A stretch of 64,000 nucleotides of DNA from Patescibacteria group bacterium (GCA_015491245.1 WFWH01000002.1:3823-67822), one strand, 5' to 3'. Counted from the stretch's first letter, positions 2,153 to 60,940 are shown. Notes: generated by a model not told the origin, from the sequence alone. Program-made: numbers and translations.

Positions 2153-3457
2153 TCATTCCTTCATGGCGATGAGGAGATCCGCAACGTTACTTCCAGTATA
2201 CCCCGTCTCTAGTACGTCCTCCAACTGTGCAAAAAAAGGAGAGGCGTCAAAGCGCGCGCGGTACTTTTCGGCGATGAGCCCCGCCTCCTGCGCGCGGCGT
2301 CGTGTCTCTGCGTCCACGAGTGCCCCCGCATACGGCCCATTGTCTCTGCCGTCACTCGCGCAGGCAAGCAGAAGTTCGCCTTCATGCAGGTGTGACAGCG
2401 CACAGAGGGCGAGGTGCTGATTGCGTCCTCCTTTCCCCGCCGTGTCGCGCACGGTGACCGTAGTCTCACCCCCATACAAAAGCACGGTACGCGGCGCGGC
2501 GTGGTGGAGGGTATGGGTGATGGTGCGCGCTACCTCCTCTGCATCCCCTTCCAATACATCGGAGGCAATCTCAGCGGCGTATTCTAAACTAAACGCGGCA
2601 CCACGCATTGCGGCAAGCGCGATGCGATTGTTGACTGCCACAACGTGAGAGATGCGCGAAAAGAGCGCGGCATCCTTGGGTGTCTCCAATAAGTGGGGCG
2701 CAAAGCGTGCGGCAAGCGGGGGCGCAACGCGCGCGAGGACCCGCAAGGCGTCCTCTTTCGTGGAGGGATCGCGTACGGTAGGGCCCGAAGCTACTATGCT
2801 AATATCGTCCCCTGGCACATCGGAGAAAATAAGTGCCACCATCCGCGCAGGATATGCGCGTGCCGCCAAGTTGCCGCCCCGCGCCAGGGAGAGGTGCTTG
2901 CGCACCACGTTCACCTCACCGATGGGGATACCGTGCTGAAAGAGTGCGCGCATCAGGAGCGTCTCTTCCTCGCAGGTGTGGTGTGCCGGCTGGCACAACA
3001 GCGTGGAGCCGCCGCCGGAGATTACCGCAATGACCACATCTCGTTCTCCTGCCCCATCTAAGAGCGTGAGAATCTCTTTCGTATACGCGACATTGTCTGC
3101 TGAGGGAAAGGGATGGGTACCGGCGCGCGCGCGTATGCGCGTAAGGGTTTCATGCGCGGCACGCACATCCACCACGATACCATCATCAATACGGTCGCCG
3201 AGTATTTCCTCAAGCGCACATGCAGCTTCCAGTGCACACTTTCCCACTCCCACCACCAAAAGGCGGTTAATTTCATCCCACGCAAAGCATTGTCCTGCAA
3301 TGCACACCCTTTCCGTATCAGCGGTGACTGTCCGACGTATCGCCTCTCGCGTGCGTATTGCATGAAGCCCCGCCCCTAGTATGGTGAGCGCCGCGATGCG
3401 CTGCGGCGTGCGGGAAATCGCCGCGGCATTGCGCAACCATGGAAAGCGAGAGCTCAT
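2153..3457 (-). CDS. glycerate kinase (MOFRL / GckA-TtuD family)
   Basis: ORF 2153..3523(-). It carries the MOFRL-family pattern VVGVGKCALEAA... VIAVISGGGSTLL... VRKHLSLARGGNLA... LIFSDVPGDDISIVASGPT. The internal Met at 3457 (MSSRFPW) is the preferred start, because it avoids overlap with the divergent gene. Confidence 0.7.
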   Translation of the reverse strand: MSSRFPWLRNAAAISRTPQRIAALTILGAGLHAIRTREAIRRTVTADTERVCIAGQCFAWDEINRLLVVGVGKCALEAACALEEILGDRIDDGIVVDVRAAHETLTRIRARAGTHPFPSADNVAYTKEILTLLDGAGERDVVIAVISGGGSTLLCQPAHHTCEEETLLMRALFQHGIPIGEVNVVRKHLSLARGGNLAARAYPARMVALIFSDVPGDDISIVASGPTVRDPSTKEDALRVLARVAPPLAARFAPHLLETPKDAALFSRISHVVAVNNRIALAAMRGAAFSLEYAAEIASDVLEGDAEEVARTITHTLHHAAPRTVLLYGGETTVTVRDTAGKGGRNQHLALCALSHLHEGELLLACASDGRDNGPYAGALVDAETRRRAQEAGLIAEKYRARFDASPFFAQLEDVLETGYTGSNVADLLIAMKE

Positions 3458-3505
3458 GGAGTAAACGCTTACTGCATTAGTGTAGGGCAAAAGTATGTTT
3501 TTTGC

Positions 3506-3511
3506 TAGAAT
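3506..3511 (+). promoter_or_regulatory. putative extended -10 (TGcTAGAAT) for the divergent cohesin-like gene, 17 nt before its ATG
   Basis: tttTGcTAGAATgcatggtgacaatcctcATG; no convincing -35. Confidence 0.3.
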
Positions 3512-3528
3512 GCATGGTGACAATCCTC

Positions 3529-4245
3529 ATGAGGCACCCACACTCCTCCCGCCGCCGCACTGGCATTGCATTGGGGCTTACCGTTGCCGTATTACTCTTC
3601 ACGGCACTGGGTATTGCGCTGCGTTACCGCACCCCCTCCAGCGAGGGGCAACTTGTACTTGCGCCAGCACAGCGCGTGCTGGCGGTGGGTGCCACCACAA
3701 GCGTTACCGTTATGCTACGCACCCGCATTCCCGTTGCCACGGTTGCGGGGAGCATTGTTTTGCCTGATGAGGTATCCCTCTTGTCACTAGACCCCTCGCG
3801 CTCGCTCGTGGAGCTGTGGACCCAAAAGCCCACCGCCCGATCTGCCAAGATCATTTCCTTTAGGGGCGGTATTGCCAACGGCTTCCAGGGAACTGGTGAG
3901 GTATTCACTTTTGTGGTGCGTGCAGATACGCCAGGAACCGCGGAGCTCCTCGTGCTCGACCCCCAATTGCGTACCCGTAAGGGGAAAGGGGGCAATATTG
4001 CGGTAGTGTCCGAGCCGCTGATACTCAAAATACAGCGCAGGGAGAGCGCTGCGCATCCCTCGGAATACATCGGTACTGATAACACTACACAGGAGGTAGC
4101 AGCCTATGGGAGAATTACCGCTATGGGATACGTATGTGTGGGGTATCATCTTCCGGCAGCACGGGCGCTTCAAAGCAGGAGGATGCAGAAACACACCCCA
4201 CATACGCGCTTTTCCCAGTGTCAGCGCGGAGGCGCCTTCCTGTAA
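3529..4245 (+). CDS. membrane-anchored cohesin-like domain protein
   Basis: N-terminal TM helix GIALGLTVAVLLFTALGIAL. Cohesin-type pattern ...VTVMLRT...VAGSIVLPDEVSLLSLDPSRSLVELWTQKP...ISFRGGIANGFQGTGEVFTFVVRADTPGTAELLV...GKGGNIAV. The C-terminal 60 aa look odd, and the gene overlaps the convergent gene by 25 bp. Confidence 0.45.
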   Translation: MRHPHSSRRRTGIALGLTVAVLLFTALGIALRYRTPSSEGQLVLAPAQRVLAVGATTSVTVMLRTRIPVATVAGSIVLPDEVSLLSLDPSRSLVELWTQKPTARSAKIISFRGGIANGFQGTGEVFTFVVRADTPGTAELLVLDPQLRTRKGKGGNIAVVSEPLILKIQRRESAAHPSEYIGTDNTTQEVAAYGRITAMGYVCVGYHLPAARALQSRRMQKHTPHTRFSQCQRGGAFL

Positions 4246-6038
4246 CGCTGCCGCTTGGGGATGCGTACCGGCGCCAAAGGATGTGTTGCCGCCGCGGCAC
4301 TTTCATCCAGCTCCCGGGAAATGTGCGCCTTGGTGCGCGGAAAGCCATGAACGAGTTGCGCGTGCAATGCGCGCTCCCTCCTGGTAAGAGGACGCGTTTT
4401 CCCCTCTTTTTCCCAAGAGCGCGCACAGCGCGCGACGCCACTCTCCAGCGGCGCAAATGAATCCGCCTCTGCCGTACGCGTTCGGGCGCGCACTTTCCCT
4501 GCCACGCGTGCGCCTCCCTGCCACACGAGCCACAAGAGCACCCCCAGAAGAGTAAGGGCGCCCATAAGCGTCGCCGCCATGGAGATATAGCTCACTGCAA
4601 TAGAGCCAAAGAGCAGAATCTTTGGCTGGCGCACCGGTATTAACGGAGTAGCCACAGTATTGCTCTCTGCGCCTTTCTCATTTCGCACTTTCAAAAAGAT
4701 TTCATATTCTCCCTCGGGGGCCGCGGCGAACGCCTCGAGCGCAAAATTGCCGTTTGCATCAGCGCGCGTTTCAATGGTGGCACGCGCCATTCCATCGCGG
4801 CGCACCTGCGCCACCACGCGACCGCGCGGATAGGTGGTACCGCGCACGATGAGGGGGCTCCCCACCGATACCACCCGGGGGACCTCTCCCAGCACGGGCG
4901 CCTTCAGTGGTGCCACGACGAATGAAACGGTGGTGGCAGTGCGGTTGCCGGCCCAATCGTATGCTGCTACCGTAAGCGCGTGCGTACCCGGACCTTCCGC
5001 AGAAATCGTGTAGCGCCCCTCCTCATCCGGCGCCCACTTTTGCGGCGGCGCGCCATTAAGCGATGCCGTGAAGTAGGCAATGCCCGAAAAGGCATCCTCT
5101 CCCTCAACAATAAAGCGCACGCGCGGATCGGTGCGGTCGCGCCGCGCGTACTCTTCTATTCGGGTGAACTGCGGAGGGGTAGTATCCACGCGCAGAGGGT
5201 AGTGCTGTACCGTACCCCAAACACCATTGTCCTTTACCTGGAGGTGAAAATACGACACCCCGTCGGGAAGGTCCGCGTAGCGCATGGTGCGCGTGCCGGG
5301 TGCGAGGCGGCGCATGGGGACGCCGCGAGGGTCTTGATCCAACCCCACACGCACCGCTGCCGCATCTCCCGGGAGTTGCCAGCGCAACAGCGCGGTAGAG
5401 GTCGCATACCAACGCATCGGATCGGGATGCGTGGATGACTGAATTACCCCTCCTGGCGCCACACGTGCTCCTGCGGCTTGCGCCACAAAAGAAAGCGCCG
5501 GAAGTACCTCCCGCGCGGTAATAGTGTAGGCACCGGACCGCAATTGGCTCAAAATATTAGTGGCCCTTCCGTTTGCCGCTAGCACCGCCGCTCCTTGGGA
5601 AAACCATACTTGGCTGGCTTTGTTACGCAGTGCGCGCAAGCGCACCGAGAACAGGAGCCCCTCTGCTCCCGAAAAGTCACTCCCCGGTGCAACCGCCCCG
5701 GAAAACACAATACGGCCCTCATCGGAGTTGTAGGAAGGCGGTGTCACCCATGAGGAAAAAATAGATCCCTCTGTTTCAATGGCTACCAGTTCCCAATCCT
5801 CCTCATCAAAAGCTAGTGCTCCCTCCGCCGCATTGATTTTCTCTTTGCCGGTATTGACCATTACGCGAATGGTAAATTCCTCCCCAAGGGTAACCAGCGC
5901 CGTTGGCGGAGCGACATAGAGGAGTGCATCCTCAGCGCGAACCGACAGAGGAAACAGCAGCACAAGGGCCCACACCCACACCACTGCGGCACATGCGGCG
6001 GCAGTGCGCAGAGTTTTAGCGCTCTCGCTCTGTGCCAT
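4221..6038 (-). CDS. cell-surface protein: signal peptide + cohesin domain + Ig-like repeats + C-terminal TM anchor
   Basis: The preferred start is MAQSESAKTLRTAAACAAVVWVWALVLLFPLSVRA (signal peptide). Cohesin signature VMVNTGKEKINAAEGALAFDEEDWELVAIETEGSIFSSWVTPPSYNSDEGRIVFSGAVAPGSDFSGAEGLLFSVRLRALRNKASQ...VLAANGRATNILS. Beta-rich repeats follow, then the TM helix ILLFGSIAVSYISMAATLMGALTLLGVLLWLVW and a basic tail. Confidence 0.6.
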   Translation of the reverse strand: MAQSESAKTLRTAAACAAVVWVWALVLLFPLSVRAEDALLYVAPPTALVTLGEEFTIRVMVNTGKEKINAAEGALAFDEEDWELVAIETEGSIFSSWVTPPSYNSDEGRIVFSGAVAPGSDFSGAEGLLFSVRLRALRNKASQVWFSQGAAVLAANGRATNILSQLRSGAYTITAREVLPALSFVAQAAGARVAPGGVIQSSTHPDPMRWYATSTALLRWQLPGDAAAVRVGLDQDPRGVPMRRLAPGTRTMRYADLPDGVSYFHLQVKDNGVWGTVQHYPLRVDTTPPQFTRIEEYARRDRTDPRVRFIVEGEDAFSGIAYFTASLNGAPPQKWAPDEEGRYTISAEGPGTHALTVAAYDWAGNRTATTVSFVVAPLKAPVLGEVPRVVSVGSPLIVRGTTYPRGRVVAQVRRDGMARATIETRADANGNFALEAFAAAPEGEYEIFLKVRNEKGAESNTVATPLIPVRQPKILLFGSIAVSYISMAATLMGALTLLGVLLWLVWQGGARVAGKVRARTRTAEADSFAPLESGVARCARSWEKEGKTRPLTRRERALHAQLVHGFPRTKAHISRELDESAAAATHPLAPVRIPKRQRYRKAPPR

Positions 6039-6045
6039 ACTTCCA

Positions 6046-7146
6046 TCACTCCGCAGTGCGGCGCGCATCTCCCGCATCCACATCTGACGCCACTCCCTGC
6101 CCCCGCACCGCCGCGCGTGCGGCACTCCCCGCAAGCCGCCGCTGCCGCACGCGCCACCACAGCGCAACCAGTGCCGCGCCGCCCACGAGGGCAATCCCCC
6201 ACCCCCACAGAGGAATACGGCGATAGGGGGCGCGCGTCTGTGCAGCAGGAGGTTGGTAACGCACCACGCGCGCATTGCCCGCTTTATCCACCGCCTTAAC
6301 CTCAATCACGCTCCTGAGGCTTTGGTCTTTCAACACATAGGGGCTTGCAGCCACCTCCCACCGCGCGGCGCCTTTTTTTCCGATGGGGAGCACGCCACGG
6401 GCAGCGCCCACCTCGCGTACCTCGTAGTGGTCAATGCCGCTTTGTTTGTCCGTCGTGGAGAACGCAATGTAGTACCTGCCGTCCGCCACCGCAGGATCAT
6501 TGTTGAGCACGATAGAAAATAGCTCAGGTGCCACCGTATCCTGCCGCACACGTGCGAGCCACTCGTCTCGTGCCGGGCGCGCCAAATAGGGAGCAACGGT
6601 AAGCACCGAAGACCTCGCAGTGGTGGGAAGCAGCGTTCCCCGCCCGTCATGGGCATACACGCGCGTAAAATCTATACTCACACGCGCCTCCTGCGGCTCT
6701 TGGACGGCACCTTGCACCAAAAAGGCAATATCCGCGAGAATGTTGGGGGCGTCGGGGCCATTTGAGTTTCCTCCGCAGTAGCCGCCAGGGATGCCGCCGG
6801 AAAACCGTACCACCCCCTCCCCTTTATCAATTTTTGGCACCTCGGGCCACAGCGAGAGTATCGAGCGCCCCCTGCCCACATCCACCGCGGTGAGGAGGTT
6901 TCGGTCGTAGCGCACCACTACCTCCACCGCGTTTACGCATGCGCCCTCGGTATCAAGGCGCAACGGCAGTACCACCACATCCCCACGCTGCAGTGCCGCA
7001 TTTCGCGCGTCAAAGGAGATTATCGCCGCACGCGCGGGGAGGGTGGGAGAGAAAAGCATCCCCAGCACCCACAGCACCCCCCACACCGCACCATGCGCTC
7101 TACGCACCCACACGGTATCACGTAGCGTGGAAGGAAACGGTGCCAT
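6046..7146 (-). CDS. cell-surface protein: signal peptide + cohesin domain + C-terminal TM anchor
   Basis: Signal peptide VWGVLWVLGMLFSPTLPARA. Cohesin pattern ...VVLPLRLDTEGACVNAVEVVVRYDRNLLTAVDVGRGRSILSLWPEVPKIDKGEGVVRFSGGIPGG...NILADIAFLVQGA. C-terminal TM helix IPLWGWGIALVGGAALVALWW. Its stop lies 7 bp upstream of the next gene's start, consistent with an operon. Confidence 0.6.
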   Translation of the reverse strand: MAPFPSTLRDTVWVRRAHGAVWGVLWVLGMLFSPTLPARAAIISFDARNAALQRGDVVVLPLRLDTEGACVNAVEVVVRYDRNLLTAVDVGRGRSILSLWPEVPKIDKGEGVVRFSGGIPGGYCGGNSNGPDAPNILADIAFLVQGAVQEPQEARVSIDFTRVYAHDGRGTLLPTTARSSVLTVAPYLARPARDEWLARVRQDTVAPELFSIVLNNDPAVADGRYYIAFSTTDKQSGIDHYEVREVGAARGVLPIGKKGAARWEVAASPYVLKDQSLRSVIEVKAVDKAGNARVVRYQPPAAQTRAPYRRIPLWGWGIALVGGAALVALWWRVRQRRLAGSAARAAVRGQGVASDVDAGDARRTAE

Positions 7147-7184
7147 TGCCTAGAGTATACCGCACATGGGGGTGTGTGTATGCC

Positions 7185-8355
7185 CTACCCGGTCCAATAA
7201 AAGAGCATGATGGAAAAATCCGCGAGTCCCACAGTGCCATCGCGGTCAAAATCCGCCCGCGCTGCGGCGGTGCTCCACTCAAAAAGTAAGATGGAAAAAT
7301 CTATTAGATCAACCCTTCCGTCCTGATTAATATCAGGACTAATGGGGATATCGACATCCTGTATTCCCACGTAAAAACCTACCAGCTGACTAAATCCACT
7401 CTCGCTCTCTAGATTGCGCGGATTACGATAGCGCGCTTTGGCGCTGTGAAAGCGCTCATTTTCAAGGGTGTCGGTGGTAAACGCCACTGCCCACGCACCA
7501 TCACGCGCACTGGTGGTGGCTATGGTGATAGCATTATCCACCAAAACCTCTACTGAGTGTTCAGGGGCAGCATACCCCTGAAACGTGAGCGACTGCCCCA
7601 GCGCCACTTTCTCGGGCACCGCCGCAATGGTGGGGGGAACGAGTATCGTGCTAATGGTGGTTTGCGCTCCCTGCGCTACCTCAATGGTGGATGTATAGGT
7701 GATGGATTTTCTCCCCTCTGGATCTTCGGCGCGAAAACCAAAAGTGGCTACACCGGGGGTAAACGCACGGAATGTGTAGGAAAATTCTCCTTCATCGTCA
7801 GCGCTCACCTCTTTCTCTACCTCCCCATCAACAAGAATGCTCACCGCTGCGCCAGGGTACGCCATACCTTCCACCTGCACCTCAGTGGGCGCATCTACAT
7901 CAATCGTTCCCTCGGGCGCGCCATCGGGATCCTTCCCCCCACTGGATCCGCCGCCACCACCCCCACCTCCACCACCGCCAGGGTTCGTGGTGGGAGCGGC
8001 TTCATTAAGGCACACGGCACTGCACAGGTCTCCATCTATATTATTCCCATCGTCACACTCCTCACCAAAAAGCGTTTGTAAAATATCGTCGCCGCAATAT
8101 GGGCCATAGCCGCTGCAACTGGCATTGCAGCGCCTCGTGGCGGTAGAGGTGGCATACGCACCGTCATTATTGGCGCTCCCATCATCACACACCTCATTGG
8201 TGCTGATCACCCCATCACCGCAGACACCCACGGAAAGCGTGGTAGTGAATTCTCCTGGGCTGCTCTGCCCCCACACCCACAGCGGGAGCAATGCCACCAC
8301 AGCCACTATTGCGTACCTCCACCATACGAACCCATACCATCGCCGTATTTGCATA
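7185..8355 (-). CDS. secreted cysteine-rich-repeat protein with C-terminal dockerin (type I) module
   Basis: Signal peptide MQIRRWYGFVWWRYAIVAVVALLPLWVWG. Two CGDGVISTNEVCDDGSANNDG / CGDDILQTLFGEECDDGNNIDGDLC repeats, a G11 linker and beta-rich domains. Duplicated dockerin Ca-binding segments DINQDGRVDLIDFSILLFEW and DFDRDGTVGLADFSIMLFYW. The listed ORF extends to a GTG at 8426. Confidence 0.6.
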
Positions 8356-8764
8356 TGTTGTAGTGCTACCGGCACTTGCCGCATGCGTGTGTCTGTGCCA
8401 CCTCCCTTAAACGCCACATGGGACACACCTTACCGGCGTGCACGAGTCCCGCTGGAGTACCGGCATCAGGCACAGCATCGCGCGCGGGAGCTTTAGCCTC
8501 CGCACATGCCATACCATAAATTCGTAAATACCCACACGCAGGAAATGCAGCAGTGCCGGAAACGTTACCCCGCTTCAGGGGACCCGCTAGCTTCCTACGT
8601 GGCGCACGCGGTGGGGGATCCCACCTCCTCGCGCCACAGAGGTGCCGCGGGTGCGGCATACTGATAATTGTACCGCCATTCAAGAAGTTTGGAAAAATGC
8701 TCTAATTTCTAATCTATTGCAAATTTTCTGAAAACACTTCCTCGTCGCTTAATGTACGATGACC

Positions 8765-9586
8765 TCAGCGCCACGCCACCAGGAATAGGAGCGCCAATGC
8801 AAGTGCAACACGGTAGTACACAAACCAGGTAAGGGTAAAGGTGCGCAAAAACCACATGAGAAAATGAATCGCCGCCATGCCAGAGAGAAAAGCCGCCGCC
8901 AACCCCGCCACCACGGCCGTCCCTGCCGCCTGTAGTGTACCCTTTTGCCAGAGCGAAAGCGCCTCGAGAGATCCTGCGCCGACGATGATGGGCAGGGCGA
9001 GCATAAATGAAAAGCGCGCGGCAGCGGCGCGTGAGAGCCCCGCAAACAATCCTCCCGAAATAGTAGCGCCCGAGCGCGACATGCCCGGCACCAATGCAAG
9101 CGCCTGAAAAAGGCCGATGAGCAAACCTTGCCGCAGAGTGGGATACTCCGCCGATGCGCCGTACCGCGCATGCCAGCGCTCCGCAGCCATAAACAATGCG
9201 GAACCAGCCAGCAAACCGCCCGCAATCACCAGCGGCGTGCGGAGTGTTTCCGCAACAATCTTTTCCCCCCACGCACCTGCCAGAGCAGCGGGCACGGTGC
9301 CCACCATCAACGCGAGAATGAATCCCTTTTCTTGCCGCGCGATTTCCTTGCCGCGCACCCACCGGAAACCATCGCGTAAAAGGCGCAAAAAATCCCTGCG
9401 GAAATACATGAGCACCGCTAGCGCGGTGGCAAAGTGCAGCAGCGCATCAAATGCGAGTGCGTCTGCGCCTCGCGCTTCCAATCCCAAGAGAAGGCGCGCC
9501 AGAATAAGATGGGCGGTGGAAGAAACGGGGAGAAATTCGGTAAGTCCCTGTACGGCTCCCAGTACTACGGCGGTAACGGTATCCAT
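8765..9586 (-). CDS. uppP: undecaprenyl-diphosphatase
   Basis: 273 aa starting MDTVTAVVLGAVQGLTEFLPVSSTAHLIL..., with the conserved GMSRSGATISGGL motif and multiple TM segments. Confidence 0.8.
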   Translation of the reverse strand: MDTVTAVVLGAVQGLTEFLPVSSTAHLILARLLLGLEARGADALAFDALLHFATALAVLMYFRRDFLRLLRDGFRWVRGKEIARQEKGFILALMVGTVPAALAGAWGEKIVAETLRTPLVIAGGLLAGSALFMAAERWHARYGASAEYPTLRQGLLIGLFQALALVPGMSRSGATISGGLFAGLSRAAAARFSFMLALPIIVGAGSLEALSLWQKGTLQAAGTAVVAGLAAAFLSGMAAIHFLMWFLRTFTLTWFVYYRVALALALLFLVAWR

Positions 9587-9689: not shown

Positions 9690-10448
9690 ATGGAAGAGGA
9701 ATATCAACCTGCCCGCGCACACTCTCCCGCACGCCGCAGCGGCGCGTGGGGTATCGCCGCCGCCATCGTGGTAGCAGGACTCATGGTGGCGAGTGCATTC
9801 TGGGCAACCCGCACCCCCTCTACCAGCCCCGTGAAAGAGCCGCCCGCGGCACAAAAGCAAGGTGCCATAGCCATTCGTCCCGTTTCCGAAGAAGATCATA
9901 TTCGTGGCGATCCGAACGCGCCCGTGGTGATTGTGGAATATTCCGACTATGAGTGCCCCTTTTGCGCGAAGTTTGACCTCACCATGCAAAAGCTCATGGA
10001 AAAGTACGGGAAAGAGGGCAAACTGGCGTGGGTGTACCGCCACTTCCCCATTGAGCAGCTGCACAAGAAAGCGTGGCGCATCGCCATAGGGAGCGAGTGC
10101 GTTGCGGAGATAGCAGGCAATGATGCGTTTTGGAAGTATTCCGATCTCGTGTTTGCGCAAATGCGCAAACGTCCGCCGGGCAGCCTGGAATTTGATATGA
10201 CGCTACTCTCCGATTACGCCGAGGAGGCGGGCGCTTCACGCGAGGCGTTCAATGCCTGCATGGAAACGGAGCGCACGCGCCCCAAAGTGCAGGAGGACTA
10301 CGACGAAGCGGTGAGCGGCGCACAGGCAAAGGGAACCCCCCACAACATCATTATTGCGGGGGGGCAAATGGCGGCCGTGCCCGGCGCACAGCCCTACGAC
10401 GTGCTGGACCAACTCATCGCCTCCATCCTCAGCGGCCTGGGAGAGTAG
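9690..10448 (+). CDS. membrane-anchored DsbA-like thiol:disulfide oxidoreductase (thioredoxin fold, CPFC)
   Basis: TM helix GIAAAIVVAGLMVASAFWA, then VVIVEYSDYECPFCAKF. Confidence 0.6.
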   Translation: MEEEYQPARAHSPARRSGAWGIAAAIVVAGLMVASAFWATRTPSTSPVKEPPAAQKQGAIAIRPVSEEDHIRGDPNAPVVIVEYSDYECPFCAKFDLTMQKLMEKYGKEGKLAWVYRHFPIEQLHKKAWRIAIGSECVAEIAGNDAFWKYSDLVFAQMRKRPPGSLEFDMTLLSDYAEEAGASREAFNACMETERTRPKVQEDYDEAVSGAQAKGTPHNIIIAGGQMAAVPGAQPYDVLDQLIASILSGLGE

Positions 10449-13692: not shown

Positions 13693-15093
13693 CTAGTAGT
13701 TGCGCAATTTTTTGCTCTTTTCGTGGTGGCGAATCTTTTCAATCGCCTTCGCCTCAATTTGGCGGATGCGCTCGCGGGTCACCCCAAACTGCTTACCCAC
13801 TTCCTCCAGCGTGTGGTATATGCCATCCACCAAGCCGTGGCGCAGCTCAAGAATTTTCCGCTCCTTGGGCGAGAGATCACCTAAAATATCGCGAATGTGA
13901 TCGGAGAGAATGCGATGTGAGGTTTCTTGGTCCGGCGCGGTAATTTGGTCATCCGCGATAAAGTCCCCCAAGGTGGATTTTTCATCATCGTCCGATCCTA
14001 CCGGCGCTTCCAGCGAAACGGTTGCTTGGTCAATTTTTTCAATCATATGAATCTTCTCCACCTCCACGCCCATTTCCGCCGCCACTTCCTCGGGAAGGGG
14101 GTCGCGCCCCAAATCCTGCGCCATGCGCCGAAACACCTGCTTGTATTTGGCAATGGTCTCCACCATGTGCACGGGAATGCGAATGGTGCGCGATTGGTCG
14201 GCGAGCGCGCGGGTGATGGCTTGGCGAATCCACCACGTGGCATAGGTGGAAAATTTGTACCCCTTGGTGTAGTCAAATTTGTCCACCGCCTTGAAAAGGC
14301 CCAAGTTGCCCTCTTGAATCAAATCCAACAGCGTCAAATCGGGACTCCTCCCAATATATTTTTTGGCGATAGACACTACGAGGCGCAAATTGGCGCGCGC
14401 GAGGAGGTTCTTTGCCTCCTCGTCGCCCTCCATGACGCGCTTGGCGAGCGCGCGCTCTTCGCTTGCCGTCAAGAGCGGGTACTGGCCGATTTCCCTGAGG
14501 TACATTTGGATGGAGTCATAGCCGGAATCGTGGCGGCGGTACACGTTTTTTTTGTCCAGTATGTTGCCTACTGTCTCATCGGAGAGAATATTGCCGCTCT
14601 CCAACACCTCAATCCCCGCCGCGGCGAAGCGCTCGTACAGGTCTTCCAAAAAAGCGATGTCGCGCTCCACCTCGGGAAGCTCTTTGAGAATCTCGTCATA
14701 AGTGATGTAGCCGCGCTCACGCCCTTTAGCAATTAAGCGCTCGGCGAGTAAATCTTTCTCCGAGGTTTTTTCCGCGGCGTGCGTGCGCGGTACACTTTTC
14801 TTTTTTGCGCGCACGGATGCCGATGCAGCGCGCGCAGCTGTGTTCTTTGCGGCGGTTTTCTTAGCGGGTGCACGGCGCGTGCGCGCACGCGCGCGCGTAT
14901 TGCGGGTTGTAGTTGCGTTCTTTACGGTACGTGTAGTCTTGCTCTTTTTCTTCGCAGTGGCAGTGGTTTTTTTAACGTTCCCCTTCGCCTTAGCGGCGGT
15001 GACGGACTTTTTCCCTGCCTTTTTCTTCGCCTTGGAGGCGGCGGTTTTTTTGCGCGTATGTGCGCGTGTTGCTTTTGCCTTTGTACTCGGCAT
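13693..15093 (-). CDS. rpoD: RNA polymerase sigma-70 (primary sigma) with about 115-aa Lys/Ala-rich N-terminal extension
   Basis: The C-terminal 350 aa carry sigma70 regions 1.2-4 ([72 protein letters not shown]). The N-terminus is [52 protein letters not shown]... Confidence 0.85.
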
Positions 15094-41404: not shown

Positions 41405-44206
41405 TTAGCGGCCGGCGGCCGCTCCCCGCAGCGCGCCCTGTTTCTCTTCACTCCTGCGCGCAAAGAAGCCGTTTAACTTGGTGAGGGCGATTTTTGCCCC
41501 CACAAGCGGCGCGCCGTAGCTGAAGTCAACACTGTCTGCAAATGCAGCGAGCACCAGCTCAAAGTCTTTGTCCTGCCATGTGCGGGTAAGCGCCACCACC
41601 TCTTTGTCAGGCTTGCGTCCGCCCTCCAGCCGCTGCTTGTACGCCTCATCCAACTCGCGCAGCATGAGGCGCAGGAGCGCATCCGGCTCAACTTGGGCCG
41701 CCTGCGTTTCCTGCAGGACGCGGTAGGCGCCGCGCTGGTCCCCCTGTGCGAGGGCAGACAAGAACTTTTTCATGCGGCGCCTGAGCGAGAGGCGCTCTTC
41801 CGCGGGAGCGGCTGTTTCCTGTTCCTGCTCCTGCACGTTGGCTGCTGGTTCTGCCGCGCCGTTTTTCTCGCGCATCGCCCCTGCGAGAGGCCCGTGCGGC
41901 ACCAAGGCGTCCGCGTCATGCGCCGCCTTCCCCTCCCCTTTATGGTACGGGGCGGAAGGCTGGCGTGCCGCAGCGCCTACCACCGCCGAGAGTGCCGCGG
42001 CGAGCGGCGACGCTTCCTCGCTCTTTCCTGCGGCTGCCTCCGTGCCGCGCTCCTCTCCAGAGTCCGCCTGCCGTATCTCTTCCTCGCGTTGCTTGCGGCC
42101 GCGGCGGCGCGCGAGCAGCATATGCACCCGCTCAGGCGAGAGGAGTATCCATCCGTCCTCGCGGGGGAACGTTTCCTTGGCGAGCGCGAGCACCTCCTCA
42201 ACGAGAGTGTCGCTTCCCTCCTTCTCTTCCGCGCGCAGGAGCGCATGCTGCGCTTGGGGAGAGAGCAGTATAGACTCCTGTTGCGCTGCCTGCTCCAGGG
42301 CTTTCTCGCGCGGTGCCTTCTCATGCGCTTCCAAGACGGGCGCTGCCACTGCAGACTGAGCGATCACCTCCTCCGTTTCCAGGCGTACGCCCTGTGGCTT
42401 ATTTTCTTCTGCCGCAGAGAGATGCGGAAGGGATGCCGCAGAGGGCCCCATGAGCCACTGCCACAGGCGCCGCGCTCCATCGCGCATGACTAAAAAGTAG
42501 GAGAGCGCCGCACTCACCGCGAGCAGAAATGCCCAAAATAGCGCGGTGACAAACGGACCCGCCTCAAACCCCGTGTAGGGGATTTGGTTCAGGTATACGA
42601 ACGAACCCGGCTTGGCTGTTACCACTTTTTTGGCGACGACCACTTTGGGCTTTTTTTGTTCGGGTTGGGGCTCATCTTTGTCCTCTTCTTCTTTGCTGCC
42701 GCAATTCAAACAGCGGCCCCCGCCTCCGCCGCCACTGGCGCGCGTGACCGACGCACTGCAAGACGCCTCATTGCCCTGCGCATCCTTGAAGACGCCGGTA
42801 TAGGTTTTAGCGCCGCCGGGCACGACCGCCCTGCTTCCCGTAGCGGCGACATCGCCCACATCGGGGGTAATGGTACCGCCCACAGCATTCACCGAGGTCC
42901 ACGAAAGCGTCACTGCTTGGGAAGCAGAGGTTACCCGTGCGGGCGACACGGTGAGCGTACACTGCGGAAACGCGTCTGTCACATACACCGCCACCGTCGT
43001 GCTGCAGGTGACGGCAGTGCCGTCACTCCCGGTAAAGGTTCCGGTAAACGTGGTAGTTTTGTTGAGGGGTACCGTCGTACTTCCCAACGCATCCACCGCA
43101 CCGATGCCTTGGTCTATGGACCCCCCGGTCACATGTTCCGCGCGCCAATAAATCGTAGTCGATGCTCCTGCGGCAACCTTTCCGGGTTCCGCCCAAAGTT
43201 CACACACCGGCGCTTTGGGGGCGGGCGGATCCCCCACTTTTTCAAATGCCGCACATATGGGGTAGACGCTATTGGGGGAACTGGTGTCGGGGTACACCGC
43301 ATGTTGGGCGTACACCTCCGTGACCGCCTCACTCAGAAGAAAGTTGCCGTCATGGACCTTGTTAACCTGCAGTGCCTCCACCACATTATCCTCCAAATCT
43401 ACCGTTGCGGCGGTGCCGCTTATGAATCCTTTGTCATTGGTGAGTATCACCTTGTAGCGCTCATCGGGCTGAGAAGCATTCTCGCGCCCTAGGTAACCAT
43501 CCCATGCCGCGAGGGTAACCGTATACAACCCCGGCGAGAGCGATACCGGTACGCGTGCGCTCTGCGCCTCCTTCCACCCCTTGTCGCTGCGCAGCTTTTT
43601 CTCGCCAAAAGAAACAATCGTGCGGTTTTCTCCCGGCGTAAGGGGGCACGCGGGACGTGCCGGAGGCTGCGGCGTTTCTTTTTCAGTCACCTGCACACAG
43701 CGCGGCACCACACTGTGCGGCTCATCGCTCTTGGGGTAGCGCACATGGCGCACCACCACGCGCGCCACGTCGCGCGAAAAAGAAATGTTGTCACCGAAAG
43801 AGCCGGTTACCTGCCCCAGCTCCACTCCGTCGGGCACATCCTCGGTGGGACCGAGCGTAACAACCTCATTGCCGTCAGCATCTAGGAACAACACCTTCCA
43901 CTGCTCCTCGTCTTGGCGATTTACATCCGCATTTTCACGCCCCACATACCCATCATAGGAGAAATAGCGCACCGTATATGTTCCCGCGGGAAAAGAAGCC
44001 TTGCGCGAGAATTCAGTAATGCCCTTGGAAGCTACCAAACGCTTGGTGCCAAAATCCACCACGCCCGCACCGGTAAAGGGACACGCGGCATCGCGTGCCT
44101 TGGTACCTGCCGCAAACGCGGGAACAGGCGCACCGGCAAACAGCAGCGCCAGCGCCGCAAAGGCAATGAGCGCGCGAGAGGTGAAGTGTAAGGTGTGGGT
44201 ACGCAT
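41405..44206 (-). CDS. large surface protein (933 aa): signal peptide, duplicated Cys-bounded domains, Ig-like repeats, Gly-rich linker, [LI]PxTG-like IPYTG + TM + basic stop-transfer, then about 330-aa cytoplasmic domain
   Basis: Signal peptide MRTHTLHFTSRALIAFAALALLFAGAPVPAFA. Internal duplication ACPFTGAG...TYTVRYFSYDGYVGRENA // ACPLTPGE...LYTVTLAAWDGYLGRENA. The sorting-like segment is ...YLNQIPYTGFEAGPFVTALFWAFLLAVSAALSYFLVMRDGARR... Confidence 0.6.
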   Translation of the reverse strand: MRTHTLHFTSRALIAFAALALLFAGAPVPAFAAGTKARDAACPFTGAGVVDFGTKRLVASKGITEFSRKASFPAGTYTVRYFSYDGYVGRENADVNRQDEEQWKVLFLDADGNEVVTLGPTEDVPDGVELGQVTGSFGDNISFSRDVARVVVRHVRYPKSDEPHSVVPRCVQVTEKETPQPPARPACPLTPGENRTIVSFGEKKLRSDKGWKEAQSARVPVSLSPGLYTVTLAAWDGYLGRENASQPDERYKVILTNDKGFISGTAATVDLEDNVVEALQVNKVHDGNFLLSEAVTEVYAQHAVYPDTSSPNSVYPICAAFEKVGDPPAPKAPVCELWAEPGKVAAGASTTIYWRAEHVTGGSIDQGIGAVDALGSTTVPLNKTTTFTGTFTGSDGTAVTCSTTVAVYVTDAFPQCTLTVSPARVTSASQAVTLSWTSVNAVGGTITPDVGDVAATGSRAVVPGGAKTYTGVFKDAQGNEASCSASVTRASGGGGGGRCLNCGSKEEEDKDEPQPEQKKPKVVVAKKVVTAKPGSFVYLNQIPYTGFEAGPFVTALFWAFLLAVSAALSYFLVMRDGARRLWQWLMGPSAASLPHLSAAEENKPQGVRLETEEVIAQSAVAAPVLEAHEKAPREKALEQAAQQESILLSPQAQHALLRAEEKEGSDTLVEEVLALAKETFPREDGWILLSPERVHMLLARRRGRKQREEEIRQADSGEERGTEAAAGKSEEASPLAAALSAVVGAAARQPSAPYHKGEGKAAHDADALVPHGPLAGAMREKNGAAEPAANVQEQEQETAAPAEERLSLRRRMKKFLSALAQGDQRGAYRVLQETQAAQVEPDALLRLMLRELDEAYKQRLEGGRKPDKEVVALTRTWQDKDFELVLAAFADSVDFSYGAPLVGAKIALTKLNGFFARRSEEKQGALRGAAAGR

Positions 44207-45731: not shown

Positions 45732-46961
45732 ATGATGCACGCCACACACTCTCGCCAGAACACCCCGGAGCCTCAGGAAACCCAGAATGATGCCGCCGCT
45801 GACGCCGCGGGCGCTTCGGCAGAGGCGCACACCTCTCACCCGGCGGTAAAGTTGTTTGCCCTCATTGGCCTTACCGCGATTCTCTTTGCAGGTGCGTGGT
45901 TCTCCGTTAAACTGGTTCAGTGGCTCCCGGGTATCAGCTCCGCCGCTTCTACCTTTACCCTGCGCGAGGTGTTGCCCTTCCCTTTTGGGAACGGAGAAGG
46001 GGCGCGAAAAGGGGCACTGCGCCTCACACTCCCTTCACTGAGTGTAGCGCATGGGGCACCCTTCACTCTCTCCTGGGAATACCCCGGCACGCCGGAAGGC
46101 GCTCCACTATACGCACTCTCCTACACTTGCGCAGAAGGGGTCTCGCTCAGCGTGGTAGATGGGCTCACGATACGCGACCTTCCGTGCGGCACTCCCTACC
46201 GATTCTCCAGTGAGAGCAGAAAAATGCTCCTGGTGCCGCGCTCTTTGAAAAACCGCTTTATTGACGTAACCCTCTCCCTGGTGCTGTTGCGTGCCGATGG
46301 TACGCCGCGCGAGGATACCCGCGCCACGCAAATCATTACCATCGTAAACGAGCGCATCAGTGACAGTCCCTCACTGCGCTCCCCGAAAAAGGGGCAGCGC
46401 GCGCCCGGCCAAGGCAGCACAGGAGACACGAATGCGCCGGAAGCGGTGTCGCGCACCGAGGATGCGGTGCGGGCCGCACCGCAAACCCGCGCGCCGCAAA
46501 AGCCGGTAACGGTATTCGTACCCAATCCCAAGACACGCGAAAATCCCAGTGGCGCGCCTGATCTGGCGGTAGAGGCGCTCACCGTGGGCGCTTCGGTGAC
46601 GGTAAACGGAAAAGACATTTTTGTGCCGCGCACCACCATTGCCGGCTCTGCGACGCCCACTATTTCCTTCCGGGTATCCAATCAAGGCGATAAGCGCAGC
46701 GGCAGCGCATGGCGCTTCCGCTTAACCATCCCCCTGAAGGGTGGGCAAACCTTCACCTACACCTCACCCGCGCAGGAAGTGCTGAAACCCGGAGACTATA
46801 TAGAGTACACCGTTGGTTTGGAGGAACTGGAAGCGGGATCCTATACCGCTACCGTAACCCTCCTCAAGGTTGCGGGCGACAAAAAAGATGCCAACAACCG
46901 CGCCGAGGTATCGTGGAAAGTGGTGTCCTCCGCGCAGGGTAAAGATAAAAACAACTCTTAG
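45732..46961 (+). CDS. membrane-anchored hypothetical protein with C-terminal CARDB-like (cell-adhesion-related) domain
   Basis: TM helix VKLFALIGLTAILFAGAWFSV. CARDB pattern PDLAVEALTVGASVTVNGKDIFVP...ISFRVSNQGDKRSGSAWRFRLTI...LKPGDYIEYTVGLEELEAGSYTATVT. Confidence 0.5.
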   Translation: MMHATHSRQNTPEPQETQNDAAADAAGASAEAHTSHPAVKLFALIGLTAILFAGAWFSVKLVQWLPGISSAASTFTLREVLPFPFGNGEGARKGALRLTLPSLSVAHGAPFTLSWEYPGTPEGAPLYALSYTCAEGVSLSVVDGLTIRDLPCGTPYRFSSESRKMLLVPRSLKNRFIDVTLSLVLLRADGTPREDTRATQIITIVNERISDSPSLRSPKKGQRAPGQGSTGDTNAPEAVSRTEDAVRAAPQTRAPQKPVTVFVPNPKTRENPSGAPDLAVEALTVGASVTVNGKDIFVPRTTIAGSATPTISFRVSNQGDKRSGSAWRFRLTIPLKGGQTFTYTSPAQEVLKPGDYIEYTVGLEELEAGSYTATVTLLKVAGDKKDANNRAEVSWKVVSSAQGKDKNNS

Positions 46962-59473: not shown

Positions 59474-60940
59474 TTAGCGCCCCGCACGCTGGAGGATATC
59501 AATCTGCCGCTGGTAGTACGCGGCATGGCGCATGACCCCGTCCCCATAGAACGCATAGGCGGGGTTGGTGGCATTGCTCCAACCCGCAAAGTAGCGCAGG
59601 GCGGCAAGGCGCTCCGCCTCATAGCCGCCGCGATCGGCACCATTATCTTTGAGCAGCAGTGCCGCCGCAAAAAACGCATCCTGCTTGTCCCATGGATTGG
59701 AGGGACGCGCGCGGCCGCTGAGCGCGCGCAGGCGGTCCTGCGATTTTTCATAGCGCCATGGTCCCGCCCAAAATTGGTCCCAACTCAAGCTGCGGCGCGC
59801 ATTGCTGCAATCGCCCGTATTCACATTAACCCACCCGCCATAGCACGCCCAAGTGGAGGGAATAAATTGCGCCGGTCCCATGGCACCACCCCATCCGTAC
59901 GAGGGTTTTTTGGATACCGGCATGCTGTCCGGATTGAGCCCCAACGCTTTCGTGAGTGCGAGAAAGAGCGGTACATCGCGCGTGGGGTGCATGTCGCGCC
60001 GGTAATTGCCGGTGCCCAAAAATTCTCCAAGCTTCGTTTCCTGCGTGAGTACGCCCAAAATGAGCGCGGGGCGCACCCCCGTCTTTGCACCCGCGCGCGT
60101 GGCATATTCCAGTGCCTCCCCGAAGGGAATGGCGCCGGTGTCCCGCAGTGCGAACAGTTCTGCGCGGATATCGGCGGCGGTGCGCTGTTTGGCTTCAATA
60201 AGCGCCTGGTAGCGCGCCTCTTCCCCGCGCGTTTCGGCGAGTATTTCCTTCTTTTGCGCTTCCCGGCTCTCCACCTCCCGCTTCTGTAGCTCTTGGAGCG
60301 TCCTTAGCTCCACCTCCTCGCGGCGTTTTGCCGCAAGTGCGTCCCGCTCGCTGCGCACCGACTCCTTCAGTGCCTCCAGCCGCCGGGAGGAACGCGCCAA
60401 TGCGGCTTTTACCTTCCGTACATCGTCAAAATCTTCAAAAAAGTCTGAGAGATTTTTGTTACTCAAAACAATTTCCACGAGGGACACCTGATCTAGTTCA
60501 TTGGTCTTGCGCACCAGCTGTGCGAGCGCTTCCCTCTCGCGTGCCAGTTTTTCGTCCAAATCGGCAATGGTGCCCTCTTTGCTGCGAATATCTGCAGAGA
60601 GCCCTTGTATGACCAACTCGCGCGCCCGTATGGCAAGGCGTGCTTTTTCTATTTGCGCATCCAAGATGGCAATGTCGCGCTCAAGCGATACCCTCTCTTT
60701 TTGCTTGGTGGAGAGGAGTATCTGCTGGTACTTTATTTGCTCTTCAATCCTTTTTAATTCGCGCTCCAACTGTGCACGGCGCTTTGCAATTGCGTCATCA
60801 GTTTCCGCCGTAAGCGGCGCAGGAAAAACCGCCGTGAAAAAAAGCGCGGTACCCACTGCCAAAAAAAGCGCAGCCGCCGCACGCGCGCGCAAGTGACGGC
60901 AGGGTGATTTGTCCTCAAGGACTGTAGGGCCGTGATTCAT
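59474..60940 (-). CDS. secreted coiled-coil protein with C-terminal MltB-like lytic murein transglycosylase domain
   Basis: Signal/TM AAALFLAVGTALFFTAVFPA. About 250 aa of coiled coil. C-terminal RPALILGVLTQETKLGEF...YGWGGAMGPAQFIPSTW (MltB/SLT_2 GPMQFIPSTW motif). A TATAAT box lies at about 60996-61001 on the minus strand. Confidence 0.55.
   Translation of the reverse strand: MNHGPTVLEDKSPCRHLRARAAAALFLAVGTALFFTAVFPAPLTAETDDAIAKRRAQLERELKRIEEQIKYQQILLSTKQKERVSLERDIAILDAQIEKARLAIRARELVIQGLSADIRSKEGTIADLDEKLAREREALAQLVRKTNELDQVSLVEIVLSNKNLSDFFEDFDDVRKVKAALARSSRRLEALKESVRSERDALAAKRREEVELRTLQELQKREVESREAQKKEILAETRGEEARYQALIEAKQRTAADIRAELFALRDTGAIPFGEALEYATRAGAKTGVRPALILGVLTQETKLGEFLGTGNYRRDMHPTRDVPLFLALTKALGLNPDSMPVSKKPSYGWGGAMGPAQFIPSTWACYGGWVNVNTGDCSNARRSLSWDQFWAGPWRYEKSQDRLRALSGRARPSNPWDKQDAFFAAALLLKDNGADRGGYEAERLAALRYFAGWSNATNPAYAFYGDGVMRHAAYYQRQIDILQRAGR

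Follow-up and report, generated by a model that had tools for sequence, protein, structure and literature searches.

What is the purpose of cohesin and dockerin genes in a bacterium when no carbohydrate-active enzymes are found next to them? This question is raised by four genes, here called A, B, C and D, at positions 3529-8355 of a DNA stretch of 64,000 nucleotides from a Patescibacteria group bacterium (GCA_015491245.1 WFWH01000002.1:3823-67822). We refer to the whole stretch as the window. An earlier note had described the four genes as a self-contained cohesin-dockerin surface module, that is, a minimal system for display or attachment in a reduced-genome organism rather than a cellulosome. 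The observation is real, but two facts have to be corrected, namely how A is anchored in the membrane and where D ends. In our best reading, to which we give a probability of about 0.62, A to D are a display module on the surface of an ultra-small bacterium of the Patescibacteria (candidate phyla radiation, CPR) type, a cohesin-dockerin system other than a cellulosome, in which D docks on C and/or B. The displayed cargo is most likely D itself, a cysteine-rich, adhesin-like protein held on the cell surface. As to the purpose, our guess, by analogy with adhesin-like modules and with the epibiotic lifestyle of cultivated relatives, would be host or surface attachment or envelope organisation, and not polysaccharide breakdown.

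Three of the genes lie head to tail on the minus strand: gene D at 7185..8354 (389 amino acids, aa), gene C at 6046..7146 (366 aa) and gene B at 4221..6038 (605 aa, or 620 aa from a start at 6083). The gap between D and C is 38 nt and the gap between C and B 7 nt. Gene A (3529..4245, plus strand, 238 aa) is called likewise in three assemblies; it is convergent with B, and the two genes share 25 nt at the 3' end of B. While the earlier placement of A, B and C and the 7-bp gap between B and C stand, D ends at 8354, as a gene at 7185-8355 would be out of frame. The start of B is ambiguous, since both ATG 6038 and ATG 6083 are preceded by a GGAG-type Shine-Dalgarno sequence; gene callers take 6083, and the longer B that results shares 38 nt with the end of C. 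The four-gene sequence is identical in three assemblies, namely the metagenome-assembled genome (MAG) GCA_027050985.1 at NCBI, a 91-kb ENA scaffold and a Logan assembly.

The dockerin of protein D

Protein D consists, from the N- to the C-terminus, of a signal peptide (hydrophobic residues 9-28), two cysteine-rich repeats, a run of eleven glycines (Gly11), two immunoglobulin-like (Ig-like) domains and a dockerin, and has no membrane anchor. The dockerin (aa 341-389; 7188..7334, minus strand) can be recognised from the sequence, from Pfam, from a hidden Markov model (HMM) of its family and from the helices in an AlphaFold2 (AF2) model. The C-terminus reads DINQDGRVDLIDFSILLFEWST / AAARA / DFDRDGTVGLADFSIMLFYWTG, that is, two 22-residue segments that are identical in 12 of 22 positions and connected by a joint of five residues. 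Each segment holds a 12-residue calcium loop (D or N at positions 1, 3 and 5, D at position 12) and then a helix. The loops are DINQDGRVDLID and DFDRDGTVGLAD, and FSI[LM]LF.W follows each of them; this is the two-segment arrangement of a type I dockerin. The canonical duplicated pair had been quoted exactly in the earlier note, and the two CGDG...CDDG cysteine-rich repeats and the Gly11 run that it reported are both present in the sequence.

In the AF2 model of D (predicted local distance difference test, pLDDT, of 80), helices 350-358 and 377-385 come after the loops, with a pLDDT of about 87-96 per 10-residue block. The family HMM matches the D dockerin at 2.6e-27, and this is the sole dockerin match in the six frames of the 64 kb. 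Within the family, Pfam Dockerin_1 (PF00404) matches 77 of 89 proteins at E<=0.001 (best 8.5e-11). A whole-chain Foldseek search returned the extender domains of the adhesins Bap, MpIBP and SiiE; these matches are driven by the two Ig-like domains, which swamped the 49-residue dockerin, and no direct fold match for the latter was obtained. The dockerin call rests on sequence, family HMM matches and predicted secondary structure. When the single sequence of D was compared with the PDB using phmmer, only matches to the Cys repeats of pappalysin were found.

The head of D (aa 43-119; 7998..8228, minus strand) is made of two DUF4215/TIGR02232 cysteine-rich acidic repeats with eight cysteines, as judged from HMM matches and Cys positions. 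TIGR02232 scores 52.3 bits (cut-off 20.8; 3.5e-14) in two stretches and DUF4215 scores 38.9 bits (cut-off 27; 1.1e-9), and the CGDG...CDDG motifs are at aa 45, 56, 87 and 100. Next comes the Gly11 run (aa 126-136; 7947..7979, minus strand), by its sequence and a pLDDT <50 a flexible linker, followed by the two Ig-like stalk domains (aa 156-330; 7365..7889, minus strand), which are matched by Big_6 (3.2e-6, above cut-off) and Ca_tandemer (7.2e-6) and modelled with a pLDDT >90.

How common is such a protein? An exhaustive phmmer search with D gave 6029 cluster representatives at E<=1e-3, 205 of them at E<=1e-30. Most matches cover the C-terminal ~230-270 residues (two Ig-like domains and the dockerin), and are located at the extreme C-terminus of proteins of 280-1015 aa. 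In the 89 D-type dockerin proteins that we scanned, the heads that precede this module, which ends in ...WTG, vary: we see DUF4215, fn3, Y_Y_Y, MG2 or FG-GAP. The same module ends a 593-aa protein in two loci of unrelated context (L091 8001-9782; L092 7583-9364), near FGE-sulfatase-like genes, a PIG-L deacetylase and a family 4 glycosyltransferase (GT4), so that D-type dockerins extend beyond the cohesin locus. A tail that is found behind varied heads and in an unrelated context fits a general docking tag.

The cohesins of proteins B and C

Protein C starts with a signal peptide, followed by a cohesin domain (aa 38-190; 6577..7035, minus strand) with a conserved Cys70-Cys124 pair. An Ig/FN3-like domain (aa 195-300; 6247..6564, minus strand) with the motif FSTTDKQSGIDHYEV...VKAVDKAGN is shared with B according to hhalign and Foldseek. 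A C-terminal transmembrane (TM) helix (aa 311-329; 6160..6216, minus strand; found by hydropathy and within an AF2 helix at 311-350) is followed by a tail of 37 aa, which is short and poorly conserved. Among the candidates scored there were 572 homologues of C, and an alignment of 49 sequences has 27 invariant columns.

Sequence searches against the PDB are weak for C. A single-sequence phmmer search gave nothing useful for A and B and, for C, only cohesin matches at E ~0.7-0.9, and the profile of the C family found only a weak cohesin match (E 0.0045 over 56 residues). Structure prediction was therefore needed. The AF2 model of C (pLDDT 86) shows a nine-stranded flattened beta-sandwich (jelly-roll) that can be superposed on solved cohesins, and its best Foldseek match is a double module of cohesin and FN3 (2w1n).

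Protein B has the same plan: a signal peptide, a cohesin domain (~aa 34-180; 5499..5939, minus strand) detected by hhalign to the C family and by the cohB and cohC HMMs, an Ig-like stalk (aa 195-470; 4629..5456, minus strand), a C-terminal membrane segment found by hydropathy (aa 473-509; 4512..4622, minus strand) and a conserved cytoplasmic tail. The stalk is longer by ~270 residues. It contains an SSTHPDP domain, a Big_13/OmpL47-like domain and further Ig-like domains, as seen with Pfam, NCBIfam and the family alignment (Big_13 1e-7, OmpL47-type 1.3e-5 and Ca_tandemer 2.7e-4), and Big_13 is present in 14 of 14 family members. In the 96-aa tail (4224..4511, minus strand), the conserved columns of the family alignment give the motif R.RVR.ET.EA...LT..E..L...E.I.KEI.DIE; homologues of B are P0121-P0131. 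As membrane proteins, both B and C are of type I, with a single outer N-terminal cohesin, one or several Ig-like spacers, one TM helix and a cytoplasmic tail.

At the family level, Pfam Cohesin (PF00963; gathering cut-off 24.1 bits) is found at E<=0.01 in 19 of 49 C homologues (best 1.9e-8) and in 6 of 14 B homologues (best 6.6e-9). In locus L007, the gene just after C encodes a cohesin protein of 252 aa that lies above the cut-off (32 bits, 1.7e-7), and one B homologue carries the NCBI name "cohesin domain-containing protein". The three cohesin domains of the window are related to each other in hhalign comparisons, with probabilities of 99.6% for A-B (E 1.8e-24), 98.7% for A-C (E 1.8e-16) and 100% for B-C (E 4.7e-38), and the alignment of B with C runs on into the Ig-like domain common to both. 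With the family-built HMMs, the six frames of the 64 kb yield exactly three cohesins and one dockerin, so that these are no chance motif matches.

Protein A and the loss of a second dockerin

Protein A is short and of type II (N-anchored), and its cohesin is of the kind found in B and C. In a Kyte-Doolittle scan its sole hydrophobic helix is the signal anchor at aa 10-33 (3556..3627, plus strand). The cohesin-like domain (~aa 40-170; 3646..4038, plus strand) is matched by the cohB HMM (4.7e-16), by the cohC HMM (1.1e-7) and in hhalign. The claim of a C-terminal TM helix with a cytoplasmic tail in every cohesin protein is thus correct for B and C and wrong for A.

A word-indexed homologue search found only A itself, and orthologues were taken from syntenic loci instead. 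These positional orthologues are 222-238 aa long and 31-38% identical to A. They have the same N-terminal anchor and cohesin (Pfam Cohesin E 0.0018-0.09, under the cut-off), and in addition a C-terminal dockerin (Dockerin_1 29.6-33.5 bits), which is present in all the orthologues examined. By comparison with them, the last 68 residues of A (aa 171-238; 4039..4242, plus strand) are a vestigial dockerin with a divergent tail, which can be aligned with the dockerin of the orthologues only as PSEYIGTDNTTQEV..AAY..GRIT; the dockerin HMM finds no match in any frame of the A region. The nearest relative, L090, which comes from the same sampling series and whose C is 68% identical, keeps a dockerin on A, ending in ...YDPRYDLNTDGRISLSDVFALLRRLSFY (L090 3676-3795, minus strand), so the loss in this genome is recent and lineage-specific. 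Judging from the sequences, D and A each had a dockerin in the ancestral state, and that of A was lost here. The two are of different sequence types, with DFSILLF.W helices in the D type and D[IV]S/G...F/W helices in the A type. For annotation, the A gene of this genome is relevant as a natural dockerin-loss variant.

Is it a cellulosome?

Cohesin and dockerin are the modules that define cellulosomes, and only 64 kb of the genome have been seen; potentially, dockerin-bearing glycoside hydrolases could be encoded elsewhere and the four genes could belong to a cellulosome-like enzyme complex. We consider this highly improbable. Each protein has a single cohesin, and there is no further cohesin match in the window. 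No carbohydrate-degrading enzyme family was found in the 89 D-type dockerin proteins, and D itself consists of Cys-rich and Ig-like domains and has no enzyme domain, in agreement with the earlier description of a cohesin-dockerin set without carbohydrate-active enzymes. No glycoside hydrolase or multi-cohesin scaffoldin is found among the ten largest other open reading frames (ORFs) of the window or in the flanks; these ORFs are housekeeping genes and one family 2 glycosyltransferase (GT2). Pfam gives no carbohydrate-binding module (CBM) in the window proteins or in the B and C families, Pfam and NCBIfam give no S-layer homology (SLH) domain in A to D, which are anchored by TM helices, and there is no sortase signal. 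The Patescibacteria host lineage also has a minimal metabolism. The classification as a cellulosome was rejected, as multi-cohesin scaffoldin, dockerin-borne enzyme, CBM and SLH or sortase anchor are all missing, and here the earlier note was right.

A conserved locus in related genomes

Are the four genes really a complete system? We compared 85 related loci (L004-L089) from other genomes, of which six were found via homologues and 79 by a scan of species-representative genomes, and searched all of them with family-built HMMs; the counts of loci below are restricted to loci with enough flank. A recurrent order of genes spans ~13 kb: an FN3-rich protein, an ATP-binding cassette (ABC) ATPase, a MacB_PCD/FtsX permease, two orphan proteins that we call U625 and U350, then D, C, B and an A-like cohesin-dockerin protein, which lies at the end of the locus on either strand. 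In 69 of 74 loci a D-type dockerin precedes C at a distance of <=3.5 kb, and the long form of B is found downstream of C in 59 of 75. Upstream, U350 is present in 57 of 64 loci, U625 in 53 of 57, and MacB together with the ABC ATPase in 40 of 50. An A-like cohesin follows B in 38 of 68 loci, 33 of which have it with a dockerin. In the window, D, C and B are adjacent in the conserved order on one strand (8354-4221, minus strand). The descriptions "self-contained" and "minimal" have to be given up, since in relatives these genes make up the downstream half of a conserved locus.

The records with the locus come from Paceibacterota, Parcubacteria, Kaiser-, Adler-, Nealson-, Nomura-, Falkow- and Lloydbacteria, Spechtbacterales, Minisyncoccales/Minisyncoccia and "Patescibacteria group"; locus L012, for example, is that of a Minisyncoccales MAG. 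The generic label "Saccharibacteria" on many binned locus-bearing MAGs could not be confirmed. The assignment to a reduced-genome organism is borne out by homologues from MAGs of Paceibacterota, Kaiser-, Adler-, Nealson-, Nomura-, Falkow- and Lloydbacteria and Minisyncoccales.

The best matches of the relatives' ATPase are DarD, LolD, MacB and FtsE, while those of the permease are MacB and LolCE; the pair belongs to the type VII "mechanotransmission" class of ABC transporters. U625 is an orphan of ~620 aa, Cys-rich and N-anchored. U350 is an orphan of ~350 aa with a signal peptide, CARDB-like Ig domains and a C-terminal TM helix. Neither has a significant match in Pfam, NCBIfam or the PDB sequences. 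Examples of the upstream half are found at L004 1-6782 and L009 769-7807. A likeness of U625 and U350 to the WxL and WxL-interacting proteins of Firmicutes was considered and dropped.

Several variations of the locus were seen on the side. The C-terminal ~300 residues of U625 recur as a module at the C-terminus of other proteins, whose genes directly precede the locus, among others a giant surface protein of 4851 aa (L009 1-708) and those at L011 304-3384, L016 5577-7999 and L044 1-1653; this module may be a shared anchoring or sorting domain. D and C are sometimes split by an extra gene of 1.6-3.2 kb, in ~25 other loci and in L008, and the window, with its 38-nt gap, is without it. In L008 this gene (7535-8683) encodes a Ser/Thr-rich and beta-rich protein of 382 aa with no Pfam or NCBIfam match. 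Three or four tandem C/B-like cohesin paralogues stand behind a single D in L013 2296-7436, L031 1735-6969 and L087 3421-5294, so that the set of socket proteins is expanded there.

In the genome studied here, D-C-B-A stand apart from the transporter half. The flank downstream of the four genes (glycerate kinase, pyruvate phosphate dikinase (PPDK), 2-hydroxyacid dehydrogenase and enolase) is the same as in L004, which bears the full locus, and this places the breakpoint immediately upstream of D. One may then ask whether the four genes, rearranged away from the ABC half, are a decaying remnant on the way to loss that no longer works here. The absence of the upstream half from the window and the loss of the A dockerin, which the closest relative keeps, speak for such a decay. 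On the other hand, B, C and D are full-length and retain every family-invariant residue, the same sequence was recovered in all three assemblies, and the upstream half next to D is also absent in 7 of 64 related loci (with >=4 kb of upstream flank) while D-C(-B) is still intact. A remnant seems to us very unlikely.

How the display module may work

If A to D are a display module, D would be exported by Sec and its 8-Cys head oxidised. The dockerin of D would bind Ca2+ and insert into the cohesin of C and/or B, and docked D would be retained on the cell, with the Cys-rich head projecting beyond the membrane on the hinge and the Ig-like stalk. B, with its longer stalk and its conserved 96-residue tail, may couple the complex to a cytoplasmic partner. 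In most relatives A would be both a socket and a plug of the second type and would cross-link to another cohesin protein; here, with its dockerin decayed, it would be only a third socket. In relatives the module would be co-transcribed with the MacB-type ABC transporter and the two orphan surface proteins, and thus the whole is probably one envelope or host-contact apparatus.

What supports the pairing of cohesin and dockerin is gene linkage only, that is, the adjacency of D and C in related loci. 

Several observations weigh against the display module. None of the proteins A to D alone reaches the gathering score of Pfam Cohesin or Dockerin: C reaches 17.9 bits where 24.1 are required, A and B are without a match, and D scores 22.1 bits with Dockerin_1, just under the cut-off of 22.9. 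The cohesin and dockerin calls rest on family and fold evidence. Of the Pfam and HMMER checks proposed in the earlier note, the TIGR02232 match is above cut-off and Cohesin and Dockerin_1 are found at the level of families; in the single proteins A to D both stay below threshold. The cohesin family has features that are atypical of cellulosomal cohesins, namely a GGIPGGYCG loop with the Cys pair and an LxxDGxGT motif, so that the binding face may differ. With 49 residues and a linker of 5 residues between its segments, the dockerin of D is unusually short. A mirror-tree analysis (partial Mantel) of the cohesin partner of each dockerin was inconsistent and was not used: in 52 loci the D dockerin gave r = 0.30 (p 0.002) against the C cohesin and 0.10 (p 0.11) against that of B, whereas a subset of 25 loci with A ranks B (0.49) above C (0.35). 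Finally, the family HMMs of ABC, MacB, U625, U350 and FN3 have no match anywhere in the 64 kb, and the function here could be altered.

Maybe, then, the cohesin folds of A to C are just generic beta-sandwich modules of the envelope, similar to S-layer proteins and without dockerin binding, and the EF-hand-like pair of D takes up Ca2+ for stability, or attaches to wall or glycan and not to a cohesin. The Pfam scores under the threshold would be expected from this, as would the lineage-specific conserved motifs and the disulfide in the cohesin domains, and U350 of relatives has a weak match to a "putative S-layer protein" model. Nevertheless, several orthologues exceed the Pfam Cohesin threshold, the genes for cohesins and dockerins are neighbours in almost all genomes examined, and A orthologues hold both modules in one protein. 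Such adjacency and fusion are hard to explain unless the modules act together, and we regard purely structural proteins as unlikely.

The tail of B raises another possibility, that of a transmembrane receptor. The cohesin of B, and perhaps that of C, would capture D as a ligand-binding co-receptor, and the tail would relay occupancy or load inward, in relatives to the MacB-type ABC transporter. The 96-residue tail is conserved family-wide with a helical, heptad-like motif, and relatives have a mechanotransmitting ABC transporter of type VII tightly linked in the operon. However, Pfam and NCBIfam recognise no signalling domain in the tail, the gene lists that we inspected for related loci contain neither a kinase nor a sigma or anti-sigma gene, and the tail of C is the short and poorly conserved one described above. 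A receptor would also extend the display model rather than exclude it; as an explanation of its own it appears quite unlikely.

A wider reading takes in the whole locus. The MacB-type transporter, U625, U350 and the TM-anchored paralogous cohesins could be an undescribed envelope machine, shared by the Paceibacteria-type Patescibacteria, that assembles dockerin-tagged, adhesin-like proteins into a host-contact structure. We put this forward tentatively, as a possibility that is more doubtful than not. If true, it would be a cohesin-dockerin "attachment organelle" and not an enzyme scaffold, and it would be separable into two separately encoded halves, as in this genome.

Neighbouring genes in the window

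Upstream of D there are genes for an undecaprenyl-diphosphatase (BacA), a DsbA-like thioredoxin, a UvrD/PDDEXK helicase, RpoD, DnaG and RpoC. BacA (8765-9586, minus strand) is directly upstream of D, and the DsbA-like thioredoxin/oxidoreductase, which is membrane-anchored (9690-10448, plus strand), is two genes upstream. The latter fits the extracytoplasmic formation of disulfides in the 8-Cys head of D and in the Cys pair of the C cohesin. A VKOR gene near the locus in the relative L009 fits the same picture of disulfide formation. A scan of 3300-8900 for promoters and terminators gave counts no higher than in shuffled sequence.

Some other proteins of the window were observed in passing. A type I surface protein of 933 aa (41405-44206, minus strand) has no Pfam match; behind its signal peptide it carries duplicated extracellular domains with cysteines and a Gly run, and besides a single TM helix there is a large intracellular part of ~380 aa. 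Two further proteins have no Pfam match at E<=1e-5, one of 409 aa that is N-terminally anchored (45732-46961, plus strand) and one of 488 aa (59474-60940, minus strand). The RpoD-type sigma factor (13693-15093, minus strand) has a highly basic, Lys/Thr/Ala-rich N-terminal extension of ~110 residues before region 1.1.

Significance

Very few Paceibacteria-type Patescibacteria have been cultivated. Cultivated relatives are epibiotic (PMC10936435; PMC10633639), and the mechanisms by which Paceibacteria attach to methanogens are still unclear (PMC10936435). A cohesin-dockerin gene set whose order has been kept in dozens of genera, and which is linked to a mechanotransmitting ABC transporter, offers a concrete candidate for a surface apparatus, and one that can be tested. 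Its modules are small and soluble, and in vitro binding assays need no culture of the organism. If the display module is real, it extends cohesin-dockerin biology to type I membrane anchors with cytoplasmic tails, to non-enzymatic cargo and, in the A orthologues, to socket and plug in one protein. For annotation, it matters that the Pfam thresholds miss these domains in single sequences. What is new is the system and its context; the domains themselves are familiar and in part already annotated.

Comparison with known systems

In the open-access papers and preprints that we searched, we found no link of type VII transporters to cohesin-dockerin proteins, and no description in Patescibacteria of the conserved operon, the MacB-type link or paralogous TM-anchored cohesins. 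The type VII transporters themselves (MacB/LolCDE/FtsEX) are matched by the ATPase and permease of the relatives' locus, which encodes extracytoplasmic proteins as well, and none is present in this window.

According to Peer et al. 2009, as cited in PMC10066038, non-cellulosomal cohesins and dockerins occur across all three domains of life. In the toxin-glycosidase complexes of Clostridium perfringens (NagJ/NagH; PDB 2w1n, 2o4e, 2vo8) the modules are part of secreted glycoside hydrolases, unlike here. The cohesin of Archaeoglobus fulgidus (PDB 2xdh) has no assigned function or conserved transporter context, unlike the locus described here, and neither of the two cases has a set of TM-anchored paralogous cohesins like A to C.

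On the dockerin side, the envelope protein SEML1_0315 of the saccharibacterium Southlakia epibionticum has a dockerin domain and is essential (PMC10633639), and giant ORFs of Omnitrophota with non-cellulosomal dockerins were proposed to be adhesins (PMC10066038). By their description both can be likened to D, whereas no cohesin partners or operon are described there.

On the cohesin side, TM-anchored single-cohesin proteins, called "non-SLH anchoring scaffoldins", are found in Firmicutes genomes, with unclear binding partners; Lachnoclostridium sp. MSJ-17, a host of such a protein, is presumed to be non-cellulolytic (PMC11557425). They are similar to B and C in the single cohesin and the C-terminal TM helix, and different in that they belong to another phylum, no ABC-transporter operon is described for them, and a B-like Ig stalk and tail are not reported. 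The single-cohesin anchoring scaffoldins OlpA and OlpC of C. thermocellum (PDB 3ul4, 4dh2) have an SLH wall anchor where a TM helix is found here, and their partners are plant cell-wall-degrading enzymes or scaffoldins, whereas D has a Cys-rich head and no catalytic domain. What the module described here has in common with the anchoring end of a cellulosome is, as far as the genes suggest, a single cell-bound cohesin that captures a dockerin-tagged protein.

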